A stretch of 64,000 bases of DNA from Escherichia coli (lineage in GTDB: Bacteria > Pseudomonadota > Gammaproteobacteria > Enterobacterales > Enterobacteriaceae), in the NCBI RefSeq assembly GCF_024502345.1, contig NZ_JALDNN010000003.1. One strand, written 5' to 3'. Shown in pieces: positions 8,107 to 42,514 of the stretch. The notes under the pieces were generated by a model. The model saw only the letters and a list, made by a program, of their open reading frames with translations, searched no databases and was not told where the DNA came from. Numbering within the stretch: position 1 is the stretch's first letter; the number at the start of each line of letters is the position of its first letter. The position numbers and the translations under genes are program-made.

Positions 8107-11100
8107 GTGTTCGTCATGAGAAAATCAGGTTTATGTTTAACCCTGTTGTTTTCTTTAATTGCTTCGATTAAATCGGTACAAGCTGAGGCAATTATGATTT
8201 CCGGAAAACTCCAGGCTGATATGCCTGCCGTCACGTTTAATCCCGGCCCGGGCGATTTTGTTGCATTCGTCAACAATAATACAATTACTGCTTCAGGTAC
8301 TGGCAACGCATGCAATGTGACGGTTGATGATCGTGCGACATCAAGCGTAGATAACTTGGTCTGCTTTTTTGAATGGCTTCCAAATACCTCTGGCTTTACA
8401 GCAAACGGATTCAATTTAACAGGGATACCCAATGCGGCAGGAGAACTAAAACTGCCGTATAAAATTTCTTATTTTTCTGGATCAGAAAGGCAGAAAGTAG
8501 AAGTGGTTAATGGGGAGTATACAGTTAATGCTCTTGTACCGGTTAAACCGACGATAACGGGCCTGAAATCGTCTATGAATGGAGTGGTTCAGGATGGTTA
8601 CACTCTTAAATCCTATCTTAAGGATGAAGCAATTAGGAATGTCACTGTCTCCGTAGAGCCTCGCAATTATGTGCAATATATCTCTATCGGGTCTGGATCA
8701 GCTTGCGAAGTCGAAATTGGTGGGAATGGCTGCACGATCGATGTTGGAAGCATCAAAGTAAGTGATTCGGATTTGCTGATGGGTTCACGGGAAATCACGG
8801 TCACTGCCAATTCGAAAAATAATTACTTTGCCCCTCCTGAAGCGCAGAAGCTAACGCTGACCTGGGATTACCGTCCTCCTGTTGTTGACCATACTCTCTG
8901 GAATTTCACGGATGAAGCTAAAACAATAAGTATTGGTGGACAGGAGATCTATACAGGAGCTAGAACGGTGGCCGTAGCCGTCAAAGTGCCTCAGGAAGAA
9001 ACTGAGGGTGAGTGGTGGTTACCAACCGCTATGACGCTAACGATGAATCCTGATGGGGTGTTTAAGCCGACAACAAAAGTTACTTTAGAAGATGGTACGG
9101 TTATCGACTTTAAGCAATCCTGGGCAACACCGCTACGTCGTACTCTTCAGCCCGTGAGCGGGCCACAGAAAGTCGGCGATGAATATCTGTATATCTTTGA
9201 CTTAACAGACTTGACGAATGGTTCTTATGCCGCCTCGTTCACGGTAGAGAACAATAGCAAGAATACCTCTACGTACAATGAGCCTGAAAGCAAACTGATG
9301 CTTTCTGATAACCCAACACTGATGGTGCTTAAGGACGGTGCAGCTCTGGCCAAACGAGCTCCTGTGTATTTCTTAAATGAAATTATTGTTGCCGCATTCC
9401 AGGGCCAGGCCGGAGTCGCGGATATTAAAGCTGTTACGATAGATAACAAACTTGTTGAGCTCACCCCCACGAACCACAAAGGCATTTATTATCTGCCGGT
9501 TGGGGATGATCTAGAAGTGAATGCTGACCATGAAATCACGGTCATAGCTGAAAACCTGTACGGCAAGATTGTGACATTTAATACTACTTTCACGTATCAA
9601 CCAACAGGATTCACGCTTAAAAACTTTGAGAAAGACATCACATTGTACTCACGAGTTCGGCAGTATACCGATCTCATGAGTCAGACGGCCGGTGATAAAT
9701 GCACTCTCTTTACTACAGAAGAGAACGCACTGGCATACCTTGAATGGTATGGTGACAAATCTGATATCACCGCCTGTTACCCTCAGTGGAACAATGTGCC
9801 TGACGGGCTTGAATTTTACTTTAAAGGCCGGACGCCAGGCCTGACAGGGTTCTTCAATAAAACAGGCGATAACCTGCTCGACTATCAGGTCTATATGATA
9901 AACGGCAAGGGCTCTAAAGCTGTATCGTCCAGAAACCGCCATGTGCTGATTACGCAGTTACCTTATAACCCGGTCCTTACCTACAAGAAAAACAAGGTGT
10001 TGACGGGGATTAACGATAACACCGCACTGGCGTATACCACTGGCGGGGAAGCAGCTCGTCTATTGGCAAAAGTGGTTCCTGCTGATGTGACAGTCTATGT
10101 TTCACAAAACGGGGGGGAAAGCGTAAAAACGACGTTTAAGAACCGTTCATCAAATAACGATGCAACGACGTTTGTTCAACGTCTTAAAGTGGCATCAGCC
10201 CCGTTGTGGACGAAGAATGTCTTCGACATAGCTGTCGAGTACTCGAAGGAACCGACTATGCGAACCGTTGATACGCTCAATGTGTATACGGTACCCGACT
10301 TTAACATTAGAGCGGCAATGGAAATTGAGGACAAAAAGACTGCTACCACGATGGAATTGCCATTGAAGGTGTCTGTTGGCCGCTATAACAATTCAACCCG
10401 CAAAAGTTCATTTAGTCGGACAACAATGGGGGACTGGGATGTAACCATTTACGCTCAGAAAAGTGTTTATGGAAAAGATCCAGAAACAGGCCGATATAAA
10501 ACGACGTATGAACGTACACCCCTAACCGAAGCACTGCCCGTGAATGATGCCGGGGTGGTTGAAACCAAGATCAAGATAGAAAATTTGGACCTCGGGAACG
10601 TGCGACTTGTCGGGATTGCTAAAGTACGATCGCCTTTCGCAGATTTCGAACTGACCCGGGAAACCAGTGCAGTTAGCATCCGTGTTTATAAGGGCGAAGA
10701 GCTAGAAGGTAATCTCTCAAAGAGTCTGATTATCGGACGTATCCCGCTCAGTACGCTTGTTAACTTCAAATCGGCCAGTACAGCTAACTCCGATGCGCTG
10801 GCGCCTACCGAGTGGCAGGAGTCTTCTGATAATGGACAGACATGGACTATGCTTCAGGACATGACAGGGAAGCGAAGCATTTCGATCAGGAAAACTGAGG
10901 TTGGTAAATGGCTTTACAGGGCAAAAATGACCAACAAGTTTACGTCGAAAGAGTCTTATAGCGACGTTCTGACGGTTGTAACGTACAAACAGCCTAAGCT
11001 GAGCATCGATGTTGCTGAAATTCTCGAAGGCGATGATTTGCCTGTCACGCTGCTGGATAACGATGAACCAATTCCGCAGGGTACGGCCGAAGTGATGTGG

Positions 11101-12687: not shown

Positions 12688-13200
12688 ATGAGAGAATACA
12701 TACCTAAGAAGCGTGGTTTACTGAGTTTTGATTGGTACGTGCCAATAAATCTCGGAATCCTGATACTGGTTATGTTGATTTTTTTTAATCGATTTACGTT
12801 TGGTCATGGACTATTAAATGGATGTTTACCTGCTGATTTTTACATGATCGATCTGAAGGATAAATCGGTAAGGTCAGGGAATATCATAGCTTTTCATATG
12901 CCAAAATCAGTCCGTTTTATACGTGAAAATGAGAAGGTTATTAAAATTGTGGCAGGAGTCGGCGGAGATCGCCTGAGGGTCACATTGGATGGTGTTTATA
13001 ATGGGAACAAATTTTATAAAGCCAATGCCAGACGTATTTCTGTGAAATACGGCATACCTGCCGAGACCATTGAAAGAGAATTAACTATTCCGGAAGGGGA
13101 GGTCTTTTTAATTGGGCAAACGGACCACTCATGGGACTCACGTTTTTGGGGGCCGGTTAAGTTGACTTCAGTTATTGGGAAAACATATGCGATCTTTTGA
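12688..13200 (+). CDS. Conjugative transfer signal peptidase (S26 family, TraF/TrhP-like)
   Basis: N-terminal membrane anchor plus signal-peptidase-like core (IVAGVGGDRLRV ... FLIGQTDHSWDSRFWGPV); first gene of a transfer operon. Confidence 0.6.
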   Translation: MREYIPKKRGLLSFDWYVPINLGILILVMLIFFNRFTFGHGLLNGCLPADFYMIDLKDKSVRSGNIIAFHMPKSVRFIRENEKVIKIVAGVGGDRLRVTLDGVYNGNKFYKANARRISVKYGIPAETIERELTIPEGEVFLIGQTDHSWDSRFWGPVKLTSVIGKTYAIF

Positions 13201-15914: not shown

Positions 15915-18900
15915 ATGAAACATAGAAAAATAATTTCTTCAGCAATTATTGCGTCTATGATAGCTAATACTATGAGTTGGGCATTTTACGTGTCGCTCAT
16001 AAACATTGCGTTAACGCCTAAAATATTTGCGGCAGATGCGATTTTTGACCAGCTTGAAAACAATTTTAACCTTGCCAATCCCAACGCCAACCGGAACGCA
16101 ACCACCAGTGCTCAGGATATTGTGGAAAAGTATAAAAATGCTGATTCCGGGGAAAATCTGAGCGGCAAAATTTCCGAGAAATATGTTGGTAAAGCAGAGT
16201 CAACAAACCTAAATGTTGGGAAGTACGGGACGCCGAACTCAAATGAAAGTGTTATGAGTAATGCGGTGTCCGACGGGAAATCGATCGGTAAGGCTGTACA
16301 ATTACCTAGCATGTCGGGCGGTACAATTAACTCGAATTATACGAAAGAGGGGGCAAAGTTACTTTCTAGGGACAGCAGCGGTAATATTGGAATAAGTAAC
16401 AACCCGAATACAACGGCAGGTACCAAAACCAGTACAGGGGAATTATTCAGCTCAGAGCAGAAGCACAGTGATGTTCAGTTCAATGCTGGTGGCCGGTATG
16501 GAGATGAAAATGGCTTCATCAATGACATCAAAAATCGAAAAAGTCAGCTGTTTGAAGCGCAAAGTTATGATGGAGTCGCCTACCGTACTCTGGTGAATGC
16601 AAATAAAGAAAACCCAGCATCTACTATTAAACCTAACGACCCTATGTTCAATGCGGGTCGAAACGAAATAGGAAATGCTGTAGCTGGTACAGGAAACTGG
16701 CTACAGAATTGTAATACGGAAACATCAAAACAAACAATTACTACGCACTATCCAGATTACAAAGAGTTTTACTGCAATTCACCCAAGAAAGATAATTTTA
16801 ACAGTTGCACGATAACTCGTGATTTTTCCGTGCCGGTTTATATCTCAGGTGGTAATGGTGATATGTCCATGTGCGGAGATAATTGTGTGAGAGTCTGGTT
16901 TGGCAGAAGGGACGACAACTATTGGAACGATGGAGTCTATGACAACTCATTAACCTTAAAATTCCATCCAGATGCAAAGCTCGCAACTGCGAAAATAATT
17001 AACGCAGAGTGGGATGACCATATGAGGGTCACGCTTGATGGTACACAGATTTTTGCTCATATAGATGGAGCATATAGAAGTAGCAATTATCCATCTCCAC
17101 AAGGTCAATGGGAGTTAAAGAAATCCTGGAAGCTCGATAAAGTCTACGATATTACTGAACAAGTAAAAACCTCTGTATATCAGGAGCAGGATCGTGAAGT
17201 GACTATGGCTTCGCGCGTATGGGTTGGCGGTGGTGGGGAAGGCTATTTTGAAGTTGAGATGACTTTTGAAAATATGAAGTTGGAGGATAAACATATACAG
17301 GAGCCCGCAGGATGTTTTGATGCAGTACAAACGCCGAATTCATTCTGTCGGTTTGACAGGTTTGTCAACATGGATGTTGGTACAAAGCGACTCCCGGAAA
17401 GTGTGCTTAAGATGGCCACACCGCTTTACAAAGGTGATACAGGATACTTAACCTGGAAAACAAACCTTGAAGGCTATTTCTGTGATCCCCTGGCGAAGGA
17501 AAAACTGTGCTCTTATGATGCGAAGGGAAACATCATGAAAGACCCCACAGGCAAAGACCTTTGCTACAACTACGACGATATAAAAAATATGCCTGACGCA
17601 TGCAGCACATATAAAAATGATGCTGCGTGTGTGCTAGATAATCAGACATGTGCTGAAGGTTGGTTCGATGAAGGCACAAATACTTGCTACATGTATGAGC
17701 AGAAATATACATGTGACAGAGGGAAAGACGTAGTCAGAGAGGTAGAGTCACAGACTAACTCCTGTGTAGGTATGATCCCATGTTCTGGCGGAACATGTGA
17801 AACAGGCCCAAAAGAAGAAAACAAAGATTTTGGGAAAGTGGCCGCGTACTCCAATATGGTTCAGTACATGCAAGGTGAAGCAAAATGCGAAGATCCAAAC
17901 GACCCTAACTCCTGCTCTGTCTTTGAAGGGAAAGCAGAGTGGTGCGGCAGGTCCGTTGGTTTTGTGAACGGACTGGCCAAAACAGATTGCTGCGAAAAGC
18001 CGCAGGGTGCTGCTGGGTCACTGGAGGCGATAATGCTGGCCGGGTCGATGATCCGAAACACGAACTGGACCCGAGTGAATGCTCAACTGGTAAACTGGAC
18101 TGGAGGGGAGAGCGGAACCTGGGCATCAATGGCTAACTCAGTGGGTGAATGGACTGCATCGGCAGGTAAAACTGTCGGACAAATGTGGAACAATGTGACC
18201 AGTTCAATAACCAGCGTTTACGAAAACGTGGCCGGTAACCTTGGCCGAACAGTAGGATCATCCGCTGCTGGTGAAAGTGGTCAGCTTGCTAAGGAGACTA
18301 TGAGTTCATTCGGGCTTGGTAAACTTAAGCAGATGGCCATGGAAAAAGCCTATGACCTGCTTCCCGATACAGTTAGAGACTTCGTATTTAAAAATGTAGC
18401 GACAACGGGGGGAGAAATAGTCTTTTCTGCTGCTGTTCAAAACTTTATGCTTGCATTAAATGTAATCGGCTGGATTTATACGGCATATCAAGTCACAAAA
18501 ATGCTGCTTGAAATGCTGGTGGCCTGCGATCAAAAAGAAATGGAAGCATCTATTCACAAAAATCAGAAATCCTGTTTTACACTGGATACAAACCGTTGTG
18601 TTAAATATCTGAATCTGGGATTTACAAAGAAATGTGTTAAAAAAGCAACAGACATGTGCTGTTACAATTCAATGTTATCTCGCGTTATTATGCAGCAGGC
18701 CTACCCGCAGCTTGGAATAGACCCGGTTACTTCAAACTGCGTTGGCTTATCAATAGGGCAGATCCAAAAGTTAGATTTTGACAAGATTGATTTAACAGAA
18801 TGGATTAACGATGCTGTTCAGGTCGGAGAAGTACCGGACCAGTACGCTACATTCTCAGAATCGTCAATAACAGCAAATTTGCCATTTAAAAACGAGAATT

Positions 18901-23726: not shown

Positions 23727-24713
23727 ATGAAACAAAAAATAAGGCCGACTGCATTTTGCAGTAAGCAAATGGATTTTTTCTCTATATTCGATTTTGAAGA
23801 AGAGGAAAAAGAAATAATAACTATAGTTGAGTCTCCACTTGACTATATAAATGATGCAATAGCCGCACAACAAAGTATTCAATCAGAAGATAAACATTCA
23901 GGCCCGGAACTGGAGCCTAGTGTGTCGGAAGATGTTGCTTTGCCTGGTAATTGTCCCAAACTACTCAAAAATCAAATTCTGCATGACATTAGTTTTGCTG
24001 CGGAAACTGATTATCTCTTCACTCTAGAAGAGTACAGTGCGGAGTTAGGTGGTCTGGTTTTTGACTGGGCCCCTGAAGATGTATATCAGTTATACGTCGT
24101 CGCAATGGAAGAGTCGTTGGAAAACGTAAGGCATCTCGTCATTACAAAATCACTCTATTCCACTGATGAATTCGGTAACATAACCGTGAATCCGCTTCTT
24201 GAAGCCGAAACACGGTGGTATATGTCGAAATCATTTGAGCTTACATGTGCCACTCATGGTATTGATGCTATTGAGTTCAGGTCAGAGCTTAAAAAAAGCT
24301 TATATGAATATACGCACAGTTACGGAGGTGAAAATGCTGAATTAGCTCGTTATCATCAAGATAAAGAGGTTATTCTGCATGATTGTAAGGAAGAGATGGG
24401 ATGGGATATCTTTTTCGAACAGGACTATTTGTTGCAAGAAAACAAACTGGCAATGAAATGGACTGATCGGGATATAATGGATGTCTATTCTAAAGTATTT
24501 AAATCAACAATTAATTTGTTTGAAAAACTTGTCGTTAATAACAAGTTAACCTCAAGAGATACTTTTGGTTGGGTAATCGTAAACCCTACATTTGAACGCC
24601 AGTTTGAATGGATTGAGTCAGAAGTATTCGAAATCGTAGGAACTCATCTTGGTTACAACGTTGCCGCTATCAGAACACAGATGGCGACGGCGTGTAGGAT
24701 GACTTTCCACTAA
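23727..24713 (+). CDS. Hypothetical protein
   Basis: 328-aa ORF preceded by a GC-rich leader hairpin; no motif recognised. Confidence 0.35.
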   Translation: MKQKIRPTAFCSKQMDFFSIFDFEEEEKEIITIVESPLDYINDAIAAQQSIQSEDKHSGPELEPSVSEDVALPGNCPKLLKNQILHDISFAAETDYLFTLEEYSAELGGLVFDWAPEDVYQLYVVAMEESLENVRHLVITKSLYSTDEFGNITVNPLLEAETRWYMSKSFELTCATHGIDAIEFRSELKKSLYEYTHSYGGENAELARYHQDKEVILHDCKEEMGWDIFFEQDYLLQENKLAMKWTDRDIMDVYSKVFKSTINLFEKLVVNNKLTSRDTFGWVIVNPTFERQFEWIESEVFEIVGTHLGYNVAAIRTQMATACRMTFH

Positions 24714-29807: not shown

Positions 29808-31061
29808 ATGCCAGATAAGAGAGAACAAATGACTTATGCATCCCAGGCTGTTAAGCGTACACCACATGAAGTCACTGACCACTTTATAAAAATGGTTCAC
29901 GCTCGTATAGCGGAAGTATCAGGCTGGCGCTATGTATTCGATAGAATACCGGCATTTAAAGACGCTTGTGATAAAGCACCTGGCCAGGTTCCTTGCCCAT
30001 TTAGTGGGGTCGGGAAATCAAAGTTCCGGTTCCGTAAAAAGGACCTCTTTACCGGTTGTGCCATTCACAATGATTTTCCAGTGAATGCATTTTGTGACGG
30101 TATTGATGTATTGGCAGAGTACTACAAGCTGAGCAAGACCCAGACTTGTAAGAAGATCCTGACTGATTTCTTTGGGATGGATTTGTACGCTCCATTAACT
30201 GATGCGGATCTCGAAAGTGAACGTCGTTATAAATCAACAGTTCGTGCAACCGAAACGCTTGACAGCGATGAAGTTGAAAAACGAGGGCGTAAACTTGAAG
30301 TGATATATCACTATACCGGTGAAATCAAACCTGAGAGCCCTGTGTGGGTGTATCTCCGAAATCGAGGTCTTAATCGAGTTCTGAGCAACCTTCCCAAGGA
30401 TTTAGGTCTGAACAAACGACTTTACTACATGGATAAGTCACTGGAAAAACCCACGATTTACCCGGGAATGATCGCAATTTATCGCGATACCCGTGGGCGT
30501 CCTCTGACAATCCACAGAACGTTCGTCGAGTTAAATGGTGATAAGGCACATGTTGAGAATCCGAAACTGATGATGAAACCGCCTGCCGATATGACTGGCG
30601 GCTCAATTCAGCTGTACGATCCACACTTCAATCCAGGTACCCGTACCTGGACGTTAGGTGTGGCTGAAGGCATAGAAAACGCGCTGTCAGTTACTGAAGC
30701 GACTTCAACACCGTGCTGGGCCGCGAGCTCTGCCTGGTGCCTTGAAAACGTTGAAGTGCCGGATAGTCTCCTGCCTCCCCCTGGTGTGAAAGTAATACAG
30801 TTTTACATCTGGGCGGATAAGGATCTTGTGAATACAAAAGGCACTTCCCCGGGAATGGAGTCAGCTAAACGACTTCAGGAACGTATGAAAGAGTTTTTTG
30901 CAAAGCGATATCCCACTTCAGAGCTGACAATTAAAGTCTTTGAACCTGATTTCGATATTCCTGTAGGGAAGAAAGGAGTCGACTGGAACGATGTACTAAA
31001 ATTAACAGGACCGGATGGATTCCCCGTAAAATGGGCTCCTGAATGTCTTGCTCAGCTTTAA
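29808..31061 (+). CDS. Toprim-domain DNA primase-like protein with N-terminal zinc-binding region
   Basis: Cys/His cluster PCPFSGVGKSKF...TGCAIHNDFPVNAFCDG, a Toprim-like acidic motif TLGVAEGIENALSV and a downstream WADKD segment. Confidence 0.55.
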   Translation: MPDKREQMTYASQAVKRTPHEVTDHFIKMVHARIAEVSGWRYVFDRIPAFKDACDKAPGQVPCPFSGVGKSKFRFRKKDLFTGCAIHNDFPVNAFCDGIDVLAEYYKLSKTQTCKKILTDFFGMDLYAPLTDADLESERRYKSTVRATETLDSDEVEKRGRKLEVIYHYTGEIKPESPVWVYLRNRGLNRVLSNLPKDLGLNKRLYYMDKSLEKPTIYPGMIAIYRDTRGRPLTIHRTFVELNGDKAHVENPKLMMKPPADMTGGSIQLYDPHFNPGTRTWTLGVAEGIENALSVTEATSTPCWAASSAWCLENVEVPDSLLPPPGVKVIQFYIWADKDLVNTKGTSPGMESAKRLQERMKEFFAKRYPTSELTIKVFEPDFDIPVGKKGVDWNDVLKLTGPDGFPVKWAPECLAQL

Positions 31062-36961: not shown

Positions 36962-37005
36962 GTCCTGAAGGTTGAATTATATATTTTCAGGTTTTTATAC
37001 TTCTA

Positions 37006-37038
37006 AGAAGGCACGGTTATCCGTGCCTTTTTTTTTGC
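37006..37038 (+). terminator. Rho-independent terminator ending the paralog array
   Basis: AAGGCACGG-ttat-CCGTGCCTT followed by T9. Confidence 0.55.
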
Positions 37039-37373
37039 TTTCGTCAAAACTTGCATTGATTTCACAATTTTACAACGTTCTTACTGCCCTATATGTTTTA
37101 CGGTACTGTACTCTTGGCACCGTTACATGTAAGCCTTCCATTACCTTCTTCAACCAAACCTAGCCTAATTTACATCCTTCCAGCTGTTTCCTTCTCTGCT
37201 TCTTTTACTCGAATGTTTTGCCCCTTGCTGACGTTTCCGGCAGCACACAGTCCGAATGCTGGAGCCTCCAAATTACTTTTTACTTCTTTTGTTTCGGTTT
37301 CGCGAAAATAGGTCTCTTATCTGAAAAATGGATCGTTAGAGATTTGTATACTGTTTAAAACAAAGGAGTCACT

Positions 37374-37643
37374 ATGCCTGCCACTACAATCCTGAGCAAT
37401 AACCCTGTGAATTCGGTCTTCTCTAATGACAATAGCCATTTCACATACCGGCATATTGATTTCAGTATTGAGCTACTGCTTTCTTCAGGAACTGACTCAC
37501 AACTGGAATATCTGTTTCTCAAACCGGCGGCTGAAGTAAAGATCGATTTACAGCGCCGTTTAGCTAGTGGGGAACGTTACGTTACAACCGAGAGTTGTGA
37601 CAATTTTAGCGAAGTTGATGGCTGCATGGGACACGATTGCTGA
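37374..37643 (+). CDS. Hypothetical protein
   Basis: 89-aa ORF; no motif recognised. Confidence 0.25.
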   Translation: MPATTILSNNPVNSVFSNDNSHFTYRHIDFSIELLLSSGTDSQLEYLFLKPAAEVKIDLQRRLASGERYVTTESCDNFSEVDGCMGHDC

Positions 37644-39635: not shown

Positions 39636-40216
39636 CGCAGTAGTGAGTGCCGCTACTTCCTGCCTGCTGTATGTGCGTGAAATCGAAAGGTCAGGCCCCG
39701 GTGAAATGCCGGTGTCATATTCAAATGAGCTTATCCAGAGATGGCTTAGTTCGGCTGAACGTCGTAATTTGCATTCCCGCCACAGCTTGCGTTCGATTCG
39801 TACAATTCTGAAGCACGCAAGGAAGAGCCGTCAGCCTGATTTTTAGAGCGTGATGCATTTGCTGGTGGAAGGGAAGGGTGTAATCCCGGATGTTTCAGTA
39901 TCGGATTTGGGCAATGTGCAGAACATACGTAATGAACTGATTGGTCTGGATTGGTGGGTGAAGTTTGGTGTAAAGCAGGACTGGCAGCGCATCAATCTGC
40001 AACGCCAGCCGGTCAGTTTTGGCCTTTTGAATGACCCTAATCGTTGTTTTCGGCATGACGGTCAGCAGGTTGAACCTCTGCCACTTTATACAACCGGCAA
40101 TCCCGGGGAATTGCGGAAGGTGCTGTAAAAGTACAACTACCGGCTGCATATCGACTCTTCAGAAGTCGTTGAAGACGTAACGGTGTTGCGCTGCTTTATT
40201 GAAACCGGAGTGATGA

Positions 40217-41176
40217 ATGGCCAGTGAAGATTTACTCTTTTACCGTGACCGGATTCTGGAGCGAATTGAAAAGCTCAGATCCTTTCTGAATGACCATCAG
40301 CCGGTGATGGCCGAGCTGATGACTGTGGGGACCGTCACACGACACGAAGAGCGGTTGAAAGAGGTGAACCCCATCGAGGTGAGTACTATTTCAGATGCCT
40401 CCGTGGATGAAATTATCCGTGTTATTCAGGATTTCTGTATCGATGACATTGATGTACTCAGCAGGAATTCGACGAAAGTGACAACCAAATACCCGGGGTT
40501 GATTATTGTTCCTGAGGGTGCCGAACAGCTGAGCGGAATTATTTGCGATATAAATGATGCCAAAAGTGACTTTGCCTCTGCAATGAAAAGGGTGAATTCG
40601 GAGAAACACATCCGGTTTAAGGAAGTTCACCGTAAGCTTCCCGGTCTGGTGACTGCGCATTCCACTCGCAAAATTCTGTTTGTGGAAGAACAGCTCAAAA
40701 AAGTTACTTTTGCCTGGCGGCTAAACCGAAACCAGGTAAAAACAAACGCAAGTGATCTCATCGCGATGCTGGATAAGCGTCGTTTAGTAGCGGTCAAATC
40801 GCCCGTGACAACTGACCTGACAGTGGTGGCGAACATCGATAGAGCGAAGGCATTACTGGAAAGAAAAGTACTGAGAGACGGCGAAGGGTATCGCCTTTGT
40901 CGAACCAATACCTTCCCGGTTCCGATAGCGCATTTGTTCACATACCGGCCTGAAGGCAAGGAGCGTGGAAGTAGCAAATATGCCGAGACTGATTACAAGG
41001 TGGTGAAAGCCTCATTACCCATTTTTGGCGTCGGACAAAAGCCAACAATTAAAAGACTTCAGGACTGGGTGCCAGCGCAGGATGAAGCACTGTCCAATGG
41101 TCGAAGGAGCAACCATAGCTACACGGAACTTGTACCCGGTGCAGATCTTGGCATTTTCATTATGAGAAAGGTCTGA
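40217..41176 (+). CDS. Tus-like replication terminus-binding protein homolog
   Basis: The segment RFKEVHRKLPGLVTAHSTRKILFVEEQLKKVTFAWRLNRNQVK aligns by eye with E. coli Tus [43 protein letters not shown]; the length of 319 aa is similar to Tus. Confidence 0.5.
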   Translation: MASEDLLFYRDRILERIEKLRSFLNDHQPVMAELMTVGTVTRHEERLKEVNPIEVSTISDASVDEIIRVIQDFCIDDIDVLSRNSTKVTTKYPGLIIVPEGAEQLSGIICDINDAKSDFASAMKRVNSEKHIRFKEVHRKLPGLVTAHSTRKILFVEEQLKKVTFAWRLNRNQVKTNASDLIAMLDKRRLVAVKSPVTTDLTVVANIDRAKALLERKVLRDGEGYRLCRTNTFPVPIAHLFTYRPEGKERGSSKYAETDYKVVKASLPIFGVGQKPTIKRLQDWVPAQDEALSNGRRSNHSYTELVPGADLGIFIMRKV

Positions 41177-41186
41177 GGAGAAAAGC

Positions 41187-42095
41187 ATGCAATGGATTTC
41201 CACGACCAGCCAGAAACTTGATGAGAGACTTTATCGTGTCTGTGTCTGGGTGAAAAAATACCATGAGGATGCCATCAACCGTGTTGTGTTGACGGTTGAT
41301 CTCAGTAAGGCCCGCCATGACCCGATAGAGGACCAGGTACGGGCCGAGTTACTGTGTGGGCATTATTTTCTGATGCGGAAAGAGAACAACGCAAAATCGG
41401 CGCCAGCGGATCAGAACTTTGAATTTTTGCCTGACGGCCGCAACCTGAGCTGGCAGACGTCGACACCGGGGCTTCAGCACCTTCTCCTGAACAGCAATGT
41501 ACCTGAGTCCCTTAGGCCCCTGGCTGATTACATTCAGATGCGTCTGGCCAAGCTGACCATGGTCCCGATGTCGGGAACCATCATGAAAGCCGCACTGGAA
41601 GACAGCATCAGCTGGGTAAAAGTGGATCTGCGATACTACTGGCAGTATGAACTGGTTAATTCCCATCTGGGGCCTGTTCAGGTAACTCATAAGGCGCTTG
41701 TGCGATTCGGGAGGCTGGCAAAACACGATGAAAACGCTAGTGCAATTCGAATGCTTCGCCAGCGGTTGTCATCACCGTTTATTCAGGAATTTGAGATGCC
41801 TGGGGAGGAGCTGAAGCGCAAGCAGAAGATCATGAATACCGTTGATGTGAAAATGCTTTTCCACACACATTATCCGGGCCAGAAATTACTGCTGGCCCGA
41901 TATGCTAATGGTTGGGTGCTGGTGGATTGTTTCCTGTTCCACCATATCAAACCCAAAAAGAAGGCGAAAAACAAAACCAAAGCGGGTAAATCAGAAACTC
42001 AAAATATCAAATCGACGGGGAGTGAGGATCATGGAACTGGGCATTATGGTGTGCATCGTGTTGTTACTCTCACTGGCAGCGGTGTGGATCAGTAA
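41187..42095 (+). CDS. Hypothetical protein
   Basis: 302-aa ORF with a Lys-rich C-terminal region. Confidence 0.35.
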   Translation: MQWISTTSQKLDERLYRVCVWVKKYHEDAINRVVLTVDLSKARHDPIEDQVRAELLCGHYFLMRKENNAKSAPADQNFEFLPDGRNLSWQTSTPGLQHLLLNSNVPESLRPLADYIQMRLAKLTMVPMSGTIMKAALEDSISWVKVDLRYYWQYELVNSHLGPVQVTHKALVRFGRLAKHDENASAIRMLRQRLSSPFIQEFEMPGEELKRKQKIMNTVDVKMLFHTHYPGQKLLLARYANGWVLVDCFLFHHIKPKKKAKNKTKAGKSETQNIKSTGSEDHGTGHYGVHRVVTLTGSGVDQ

Positions 42096-42375
42096 CAAGA
42101 CGGTCGGATTGCTGGAAATCCATTACTTTAAGCGGCCGCTGAGCATGGAGTATGCAGCCTGGCTGCGTGTGATGTGTGCCGGTTTGCTATTTATTTTTAT
42201 TCAGATGGTCCCGGCATTCACGTTTCTGTATACCCTGAAGCTGGTGGCACTGTTAAATCTGGGCGTGCAGACGATGAAGCTAAACGGGGTTTATAAATTT
42301 AAACGCACCGGGATGATGCCGCCGAAAGACGCCCCTCATGATCTTGGCCGCTTTAATCCATTTCGAAAGAAGTAA
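42031..42375 (+). CDS. Hypothetical small membrane protein
   Basis: Hydrophobic N-terminus MELGIMVCIVLLLSLAAVWI; overlaps the end of the preceding ORF. Confidence 0.25.
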   Translation: MELGIMVCIVLLLSLAAVWISNKTVGLLEIHYFKRPLSMEYAAWLRVMCAGLLFIFIQMVPAFTFLYTLKLVALLNLGVQTMKLNGVYKFKRTGMMPPKDAPHDLGRFNPFRKK

Positions 42376-42476
42376 TCCTCATTAGCGCCCCGAAGGAGTA
42401 TATAGTAAAAACAGTGTCTATTCGCGTGTGAGTGAGTGACAGGGCTTTACATATAACGTCAGCGGCTTTCATTTCA

Positions 42477-42514
42477 AACGTACATACTGTGTATAATGGT
42501 ATGTACGTTTTTTA
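42477..42514 (+). terminator. Rho-independent terminator preceding the IS3-family fragment
   Basis: ACGTACATAC-tgtgtataatg-GTATGTACGT followed by T6. Confidence 0.5.

Follow-up and report, generated by a model that had tools for sequence, protein, structure and literature searches.

A divergent Tus-family protein encoded by a conserved backbone gene of IncHI conjugative plasmids

Background

Tus, the DNA replication terminus site-binding protein of Escherichia coli, is an asymmetric monomer in structure 1ECR, and its gene stands alone behind the terminator site TerB. The present study concerns a distant, plasmid-borne relative of this protein, encoded at positions 40217-41176 of a 64,000-nucleotide stretch of E. 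coli DNA (NCBI RefSeq assembly GCF_024502345.1, contig NZ_JALDNN010000003.1). The whole stretch is hereafter called the window, and it was found to be R27-like backbone of a plasmid of incompatibility group HI1 (IncHI1).

In the E. coli protein, residues E49, F140, H144 and G149 hold the flipped cytosine C6 or are otherwise critical (Table 1 of PMC10331603). Tus-Ter barriers are also used by plasmids such as R6K and R1, and in R6K and R1/R100 the arrest of forks at these barriers determines where replication terminates or makes it unidirectional (PMC10331603). Those plasmids carry the sites only and borrow the Tus of the host, whereas IncHI plasmids encode the protein themselves and have so far yielded no recognisable sites. 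A further parallel is offered by the secondary chromosome of Pseudoalteromonas, in which tus lies by the origin of a plasmid-derived replicon and Ter sites are only implied (PMC10331603).

Proteins of the family PF05472 were surveyed by Galli et al. in 2019, a study in which plasmid-borne "mobile" tus genes are described and chromosomal tus is proposed to be a domesticated plasmid gene (PMC6549158). The IncHI gene corresponds to this description, being a PF05472 member on a gammaproteobacterial plasmid which falls outside the three 'resident' chromosomal clades. That survey defined no Ter site and tested no plasmid Tus; the IncHI clade described here is, in addition, stably syntenic and keeps the lock pocket. 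Moreover, tus has been annotated on IncHI2 plasmids of the pSTM6-275 / R478 type, where it was placed in 'Tra2' (PMC5923156). This IncHI2 gene is an ortholog of the one studied here, with about 60% protein identity and the same gene order. The existence of the gene and its family assignment are therefore already known, since it is annotated in RefSeq and has been discussed in print.

Results

The open reading frame (ORF) encodes a genuine, full-length and highly divergent member of the Tus family. A GGAG motif lies 6 nt 5' of its start codon, and its limits are exactly those given in the first-pass annotation, which had proposed a plasmid-borne Tus homolog from the sequence alone. When the 319-aa product was searched with phmmer against PDB sequences, only Tus chains were returned (1ecr_A, E=6e-5, query residues 20-188), and BLASTP aligned its residues 1-196 with E. 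coli Tus at 24% identity (E=5e-7). The Pfam Ter model PF05472 matched residues 15-196 with an i-Evalue of 9.7e-20 and 71.2 bits, covering positions 11-193 of the 296 in the model, and the same family is precomputed for all 37 of the 37 closest homologs. The NCBIfam Tus models (NF002810 / TIGR02648) gave E=5.6e-14 and 2.5e-6, so that the profile check against the Tus family proposed in the annotation returned significant matches throughout. About 180 residues of ordinary sequence are involved, and not the short low-complexity stretch that had been set beforehand as a ground for refutation. The motif by which the homology had been recognised is indeed present, as RFKEVHRKLPGLVT in the query; it had been slightly mis-transcribed as RF.EVHR.LPGL.T, the pattern common to the query and E. 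coli Tus being RF..VHR.LPGL.T. The protein is identical to RefSeq WP_000135563.1, which bears the name "DNA replication terminus site-binding protein".

As the profile matches do not reach the C-terminal ~120 residues, the protein was modelled with AlphaFold2 on an alignment of 51 sequences drawn from a search of 1.84 billion proteins, with a resulting predicted local distance difference test (pLDDT) score of 90.8 and a predicted template modelling (pTM) score of 0.83. The only significant Foldseek matches of the model in the PDB were four E. coli Tus entries (E 2.8e-20 to 8.5e-19, TM 0.74-0.80), which were aligned at full length over 327-334 columns; the match to 1ecr_A had E=2.8e-20 and TM 0.77/0.80, and the following hit had E=0.17. 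Since these matches are full-length, the C-terminal domain missed by the profiles is also Tus-like, and in the model the two-domain Tus fold with its interdomain beta-strands spans the whole protein. The IncHI protein thus resembles E. coli Tus (PDB 1ECR, 2I06, 4XR0-3) in its full-length fold, its Pfam family, its C6-lock residues and its size (319 vs 309 aa). It differs in its low overall identity, with sequence similarity detectable only in the N-terminal two thirds, and in being encoded on a plasmid within a multi-gene operon. Judged by alignment, the residues of the cytosine (C6) lock pocket are retained; their conservation, reported in Table 1, was counted over 13 IncHI-type orthologs with identity down to 24%.

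The plasmid location proposed in the annotation was confirmed by database comparison. Over the 4 kb around tus, several large E. coli plasmids typed IncHI1A / MOBH / MPF_F match the window at 100% identity and Salmonella Typhi IncHI1 plasmids at 99.9%, and the same gene occupies 162022-162981 in R27 (NC_002305.1). A distant-mode DNA search recovered a tus homolog in 1,415 plasmid records, mostly conjugative plasmids of Escherichia, Salmonella, Enterobacter, Klebsiella and Citrobacter; 219 records had at least 99% identity (IncHI1), 63 had 80-90% and 1,131 had 60-80% (IncHI2). Between IncHI1 and IncHI2 the tus coding sequence is 65% identical. IncHI-type Tus orthologs measure 311-340 aa, and a few truncated copies were encountered (P0023, P0025, P0026 and P0034). 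Inheritance of the gene is vertical, and it belongs to the backbone of IncHI-type (MOBH) conjugative plasmids.

Cognate sites were sought with a 23-bp position weight matrix (PWM) built from the ten E. coli sites TerA-J, the consensus in use being G6 ... GTTGTAAC[T/G]A. The first-pass annotation had reported that the Ter core GTTGTAAC does not occur in the window. This was incorrect, as three exact copies are present against 1.68 expected. The number is at chance level, since at least three copies were found in 27 of 100 shuffles, and none of the three has the flanking consensus of E. coli Ter; two of them have CGGTTGTAACGT in common. On R27 the best PWM score was 17.5 bits, against 21.9-31.1 for real Ter sites and a shuffle maximum of 16.8 +/- 1.8. 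The scan of the plasmid for Ter-like sites which the annotation had recommended therefore yielded no canonical site above shuffle level in the window or in R27, and E. coli-type Ter is likewise lacking upstream of IncHI tus. Such an absence fits divergent sites without proving them. In the IncHI2 plasmid pAPEC-O1-R, the best match, at 169199, is GATATTTAAGTTGTAACTAATAT (TAAGTTGTAACTAATAT), which at 19.5 bits scores below every real E. coli Ter. It is the only E. coli-like Ter found on this IncHI2 plasmid. With T in place of G at position 6, and without a counterpart in the syntenic intergenic region of IncHI1/R27, it was discarded.

Other candidates were rejected in turn. The 15-mer TGACGGTTGTAACGT occurs exactly twice in R27 and in opposite orientation, at 13089 (-) and 147543 (+), one of the two being the site at window position 10970. 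Both copies have G at 'position 6', and the second lies near the turning point of the GC skew. Both also encode LTVVT in frame, and the rsp gene of IncHI2 keeps this peptide while altering synonymous bases, so the 15-mer was rejected as a Ter site. A Ter-like inverted repeat, CGTGTTGTTACT / AGTAACAAGACG, at 42057-42102 falls in a dual-coding overlap, lacks the G of position 6 and has been lost from lineage L009 (lineages are designated by our working numbers). A candidate upstream of tus on the reverse strand, at ~40126-40145 (GGTAGTTGTACTT), is not conserved in IncHI2. Comparison of five to seven lineages revealed no conserved asymmetric motif upstream of tus or within +/-10 kb of it, nor did the upstream comparison find a Ter site in the tus promoter, where TerB serves autoregulation in E. 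coli. The k-mer conservation within this +/-10 kb reflected the palindrome described below and the conservation of coding sequence only.

A search for 14-15-mers repeated, with one mismatch, in both R27 and IncHI2 returned the palindrome, the RepHI1B iterons, tandem repeats of the partition region and repeats of the region of the transfer origin (oriT). It also returned the promoter-like motif CTGGCTAATAACCTGA, an inverted repeat at the start of mobH and the 17-bp arms of a 252-bp element. None of these can be tied to Tus. The recognition sequence of the IncHI protein would differ from the E. coli Ter consensus.

The palindrome is a 13-bp sequence, a copy of which had been noted inside tus by the annotation and was located there (Table 1). 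With at most one mismatch, 11 copies are present in the window against 0.12 expected, starting at 1956, 7229, 9075, 14853, 21366, 22047, 28510, 32265, 35855, 40699 and 53967. The plasmid-wide family AAAAGTWACTTTT counts 42 copies in R27 (0.3 expected) and 43 in pAPEC-O1-R, mostly intragenic and with flanks that are not conserved. The copy within tus is found at the same codons in IncHI1, in Photorhabdus, in an IncHI2-like plasmid and in the 52% lineage L011 (orthologs L003, L004 and L011), nearby in L009 and elsewhere in L019. The sequence is also the top palindrome in the distant lineages L003, L009, L011 and L019. No copy was found in 21 kb of L020, though tus is present there. As a Tus site the palindrome was rejected on its two-fold symmetry, its copy number and this absence. 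Strict two-fold symmetry argues for a dimeric binder and not for an asymmetric Tus monomer, and some 42 fork barriers per plasmid would be untenable, so that a polar Ter site is unlikely. In its 6+1+6 architecture the palindrome is similar to the KorB O_B operator of IncP plasmids. It is treated here as an independent feature, apparently undescribed, as no relevant paper containing the sequence was found in the literature searched.

The gene order around tus was compared in seven syntenic lineages, whose Tus proteins are 24-87% identical to the query. It reads DUF3150, VWA, a small ORF, Toprim/DUF7146, several ~300-aa paralogs, small ORFs, tus, a gene of 259-303 aa and a gene of 106-114 aa, the last being kept in all lineages at this length. 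An oppositely oriented tyrosine-recombinase gene lies 3' of the unit in all seven, followed by hha in six; in L019 other genes stand between the recombinase and the tus unit and no hha was called. The first partner has no sequence-family match, and its model contains an RNase H-like fold domain. Two terminator-like hairpins bracket a probable transcription unit of ~5.4 kb, as predicted from the sequence, which ends with tus and its two partners. Neither tus nor the partners gave any match in PADLOC or PHROGs, and a defence-system or phage origin was rejected on this ground. The Toprim/DUF7146 protein encoded upstream in the same co-oriented block (29808-31061) matches the DNA primase family phrog_510 (E=4e-19), a phage/plasmid primase family, which gives the block a DNA-replication flavour.

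With respect to origins, R27 and pAPEC-O1-R agree: in each, about 58 kb separate tus from a RepB-family initiator gene, and tus stands at the end of an almost wholly co-oriented block. A Rep3/RepE-type initiator is found 3.6-4.4 kb downstream of tus, past the integrase and hha, in R27 (156848-157603; L008) and in L009 (14645-15727), recalling the arrangement in Pseudoalteromonas. In IncHI2 no Rep gene was found within ~9 kb downstream of tus in L004, nor anywhere downstream within L013, so that, unlike in Pseudoalteromonas, proximity to an origin is not constant in the IncHI-type clade; its occurrence in two distant lineages may reflect an ancestral link between tus and an origin. Along R27 the cumulative GC skew is lowest near RepHI1A (~55-68 kb) and highest near 148-152 kb; in IncHI2, accessory DNA blurs the profile.

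Table 1. Positions of tus, its lock residues and other features of the window (residue numbers refer to the tus-like protein)
Feature	Position	Strand	Remarks
tus-like gene	40217-41176	+	ATG start
Codons for RFKEVHRKLPG, residues 133-143 (incl. F134, H138, G143)	40613-40645	+	Alignment projection
Lock residue E49 of E. coli Tus	E45		Alignment projection; kept in 12/13 IncHI-type orthologs
Lock residue F140 of E. coli Tus	F134		Alignment projection; kept in 12/13 IncHI-type orthologs
Lock residue H144 of E. coli Tus	H138		Alignment projection; kept in 13/13 IncHI-type orthologs
Lock residue G149 of E. coli Tus	G143		Alignment projection; kept in 11/13 IncHI-type orthologs
Palindrome copy inside tus	40699-40711		AAAAGTTACTTTT, of the plasmid-wide family AAAAGTWACTTTT; encodes KKVTF
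Exact GTTGTAAC	10975-10982	+	Inside rsp gene, within 15-mer TGACGGTTGTAACGT; encodes LTVVT; judged a chance or coding coincidence
Exact GTTGTAAC	24652-24659	-	Without Ter-like flanks; judged chance
Exact GTTGTAAC	37581-37588	-	Inside 89-aa ORF of tus operon; without G at Ter position 6; judged chance
Terminator-like hairpin	37005-37032	+	12-bp stem and T run; consensus scan; likely upstream boundary of tus unit
Promoter-like site	37069-37097		After the 37005-37032 hairpin; consensus scan
Downstream partner gene, 302 aa	41187-42095	+	Starts 10 nt past tus stop; conserved
Small ORF, ~105-114 aa	42031-42375	+	Hydrophobic N-terminus MELGIMVCIVLLL; last gene of unit; overlaps end of 302-aa ORF
Terminator-like hairpin	42476-42510	+	15-bp stem and T run; consensus scan; likely end of tus unit
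Unannotated intergenic element, ~252 bp	57081-57332		R27 152165-152416; pAPEC-O1-R 85506-85758; L009 ~17850-18105; L018 3001-3242

Further conserved features of these plasmids came to light in the same comparisons. At 42031-42095, where the 3' end of the 302-aa ORF overlaps the start of the small membrane ORF, IncHI1, Photorhabdus and IncHI2 have the same DNA sequence over ~50 nt while the surroundings diverge, which is probably due to dual-coding constraint. The unannotated 252-bp element is present in 1,455 plasmid records and lies near the GC-skew maximum of R27. It is bounded by perfect 17-bp inverted repeats (TTGCATGTCCTCATCCC) and is 81-84% identical between IncHI1 and IncHI2, above the value for the tus coding sequence. 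In a Citrobacter plasmid and in L009 its arms carry double changes that compensate each other, nested helices are predicted within it together with the invariant hairpin TCAGGCTTCGCCTGA, and no Rfam match was obtained. The element may represent a structured RNA, a single-strand DNA element (ssi/Frpo-like) or a pair of protein sites.

Two motifs lie outside the window. The first, CTGGCTAATAACCTGA, is followed ~8 nt on by a T-run and is common to IncHI1 and IncHI2 (R27 63072, 64747 and 94685; pAPEC-O1-R 196109 and 222227); its appearance is that of a dedicated promoter or regulatory site. The second comprises the first 14 nt of mobH, ATGAATTTCAGGRC, which recur inverted 168 nt inside the gene (R27 106753/106921; pAPEC-O1-R 172608/172776) and may form a long-range RNA pairing which controls translation of the relaxase.

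Discussion

The reading which we regard as best supported, and which is probably correct, is that tus of IncHI plasmids encodes a polar, lock-type replication fork barrier acting at a few plasmid-specific sites. It builds on the family membership, the fold, the pocket residues, the conservation and the replication-flavoured context established above. As for DNA binding, polarity, target sites and biological role, we infer that a monomer of IncHI Tus would bind a few asymmetric Ter sites specific to the plasmid and, once bound, would block DnaB-driven forks coming from one direction by means of a Tus-Ter lock. The barrier would set the stop point for forks from several replicons (RepHI1A, RepHI1B and RepFIA), an outcome analogous to that in R6K and R1, where it is achieved via host Tus.

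Several points weigh against a fork barrier of this kind. The equivalog cut-offs of the two NCBIfam models are missed widely (52 vs 323 bits and 27 vs 178.3 bits), which makes the protein a family member and not an equivalog of the enterobacterial chromosomal Tus. R198 of E. coli Tus stands opposite V193, in an unreliably aligned stretch. In the alignment, changes are seen at positions of the E. coli protein which we take to be base contacts (A173 to R, K175 to N, V234 to N and Q237 to V), and a different DNA specificity is therefore to be expected. Neither the window nor R27 nor an IncHI2 plasmid yielded a convincing cognate Ter. The turning point of the R27 GC skew, a rough estimate of the terminus, is 10-14 kb away from tus and is confounded by gene orientation. 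Furthermore, the literature searched contained no experiments on IncHI Tus, whether on fork arrest, DNA binding or phenotype.

Tentatively, and with somewhat less assurance than for the barrier as such, it may be proposed that IncHI plasmids carry a self-contained Tus-Ter system, with Ter sites unlike the enterobacterial consensus. Its action may involve the two downstream genes that always accompany tus, of which one encodes the predicted RNase H-like fold. In a speculative and highly improbable version of the proposal, the perfectly conserved 17-bp inverted arms of the 252-bp element (57081-57332) would constitute a pair of Ter sites.

Among the alternatives, the Tus-fold protein might chiefly block or regulate transcription or plasmid architecture at specific sites instead of terminating replication, for example by binding the palindrome or its own operon. 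Regulation of this type has a precedent in E. coli, where tus is autoregulated via a ter site in its own promoter (PMC10331603). A palindrome copy is conserved within tus in several lineages, and the hexamer GTAACT is common to the palindrome and the Ter core. We nevertheless consider this alternative unlikely. The strict symmetry of the palindrome and its lack of conserved flanks point to a dimeric binder, unlike Tus, its ~42 copies per plasmid would be incompatible with fork arrest, and L020 has tus and no palindrome copy in the 21 kb covered. In addition, a plain repressor needs no C6-lock pocket, yet the pocket is conserved.

A role in conjugation, in which Tus would halt a helicase (TrhI/relaxase or DnaB) at a defined point, either in the course of transfer or while the complementary strand is made in the recipient, is suggested by the location of tus: the long co-oriented block to which it belongs starts with Tra2 transfer genes and contains the gene for the primase-like Toprim protein. 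The IncHI2 annotation paper, too, places tus in 'Tra2' (PMC5923156). No evidence of co-regulation with the transfer genes was seen, however, and oriT and the relaxase lie elsewhere (R27 ~104-108 kb). Neither tus nor its two partners gave a PADLOC, PHROGs or transfer-family signal, and such a role appears improbable.

It is more doubtful still that the plasmid protein targets the Ter sites of the host chromosome, interfering with host Tus or substituting for it. The fold and the lock pocket are common to plasmid and host Tus, and the hosts of IncHI plasmids (Escherichia, Salmonella, Enterobacter and Klebsiella) all have chromosomal Tus-Ter, as Enterobacterales do (PMC6549158). Against it stand the identity of only ~24% and the replacement of several putative base-contact positions; moreover, these hosts already own a Tus, so that no benefit is obvious, and orthologs in the same backbone module also occur in Photorhabdus and in further lineages. 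Finally, a decaying, functionless relic, for which the lack of an experimentally known function and the few truncated copies might speak, is essentially excluded by conservation, as length is kept at 311-340 aa and key residues and gene order are conserved among orthologs ranging from 100% to 24% identity on more than 1,400 plasmids.

Conclusions

Among the carriers of multidrug and heavy-metal resistance in Salmonella, E. coli, Enterobacter and Klebsiella, IncHI plasmids are of major importance, and they combine two or three replicons on one molecule of 180-300 kb. With a fork barrier of its own, such a plasmid could coordinate the forks that leave its several origins and avoid over-replication or the formation of multimers. 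If chromosomal Tus was domesticated from a plasmid gene, as has been proposed, the tus gene of these plasmids is also the best candidate for its precursor. If the self-contained IncHI Tus-Ter system is real, it would show the chromosomal fork trap in its missing 'plasmid ancestor' state and would provide a second, orthogonal Tus-Ter pair.
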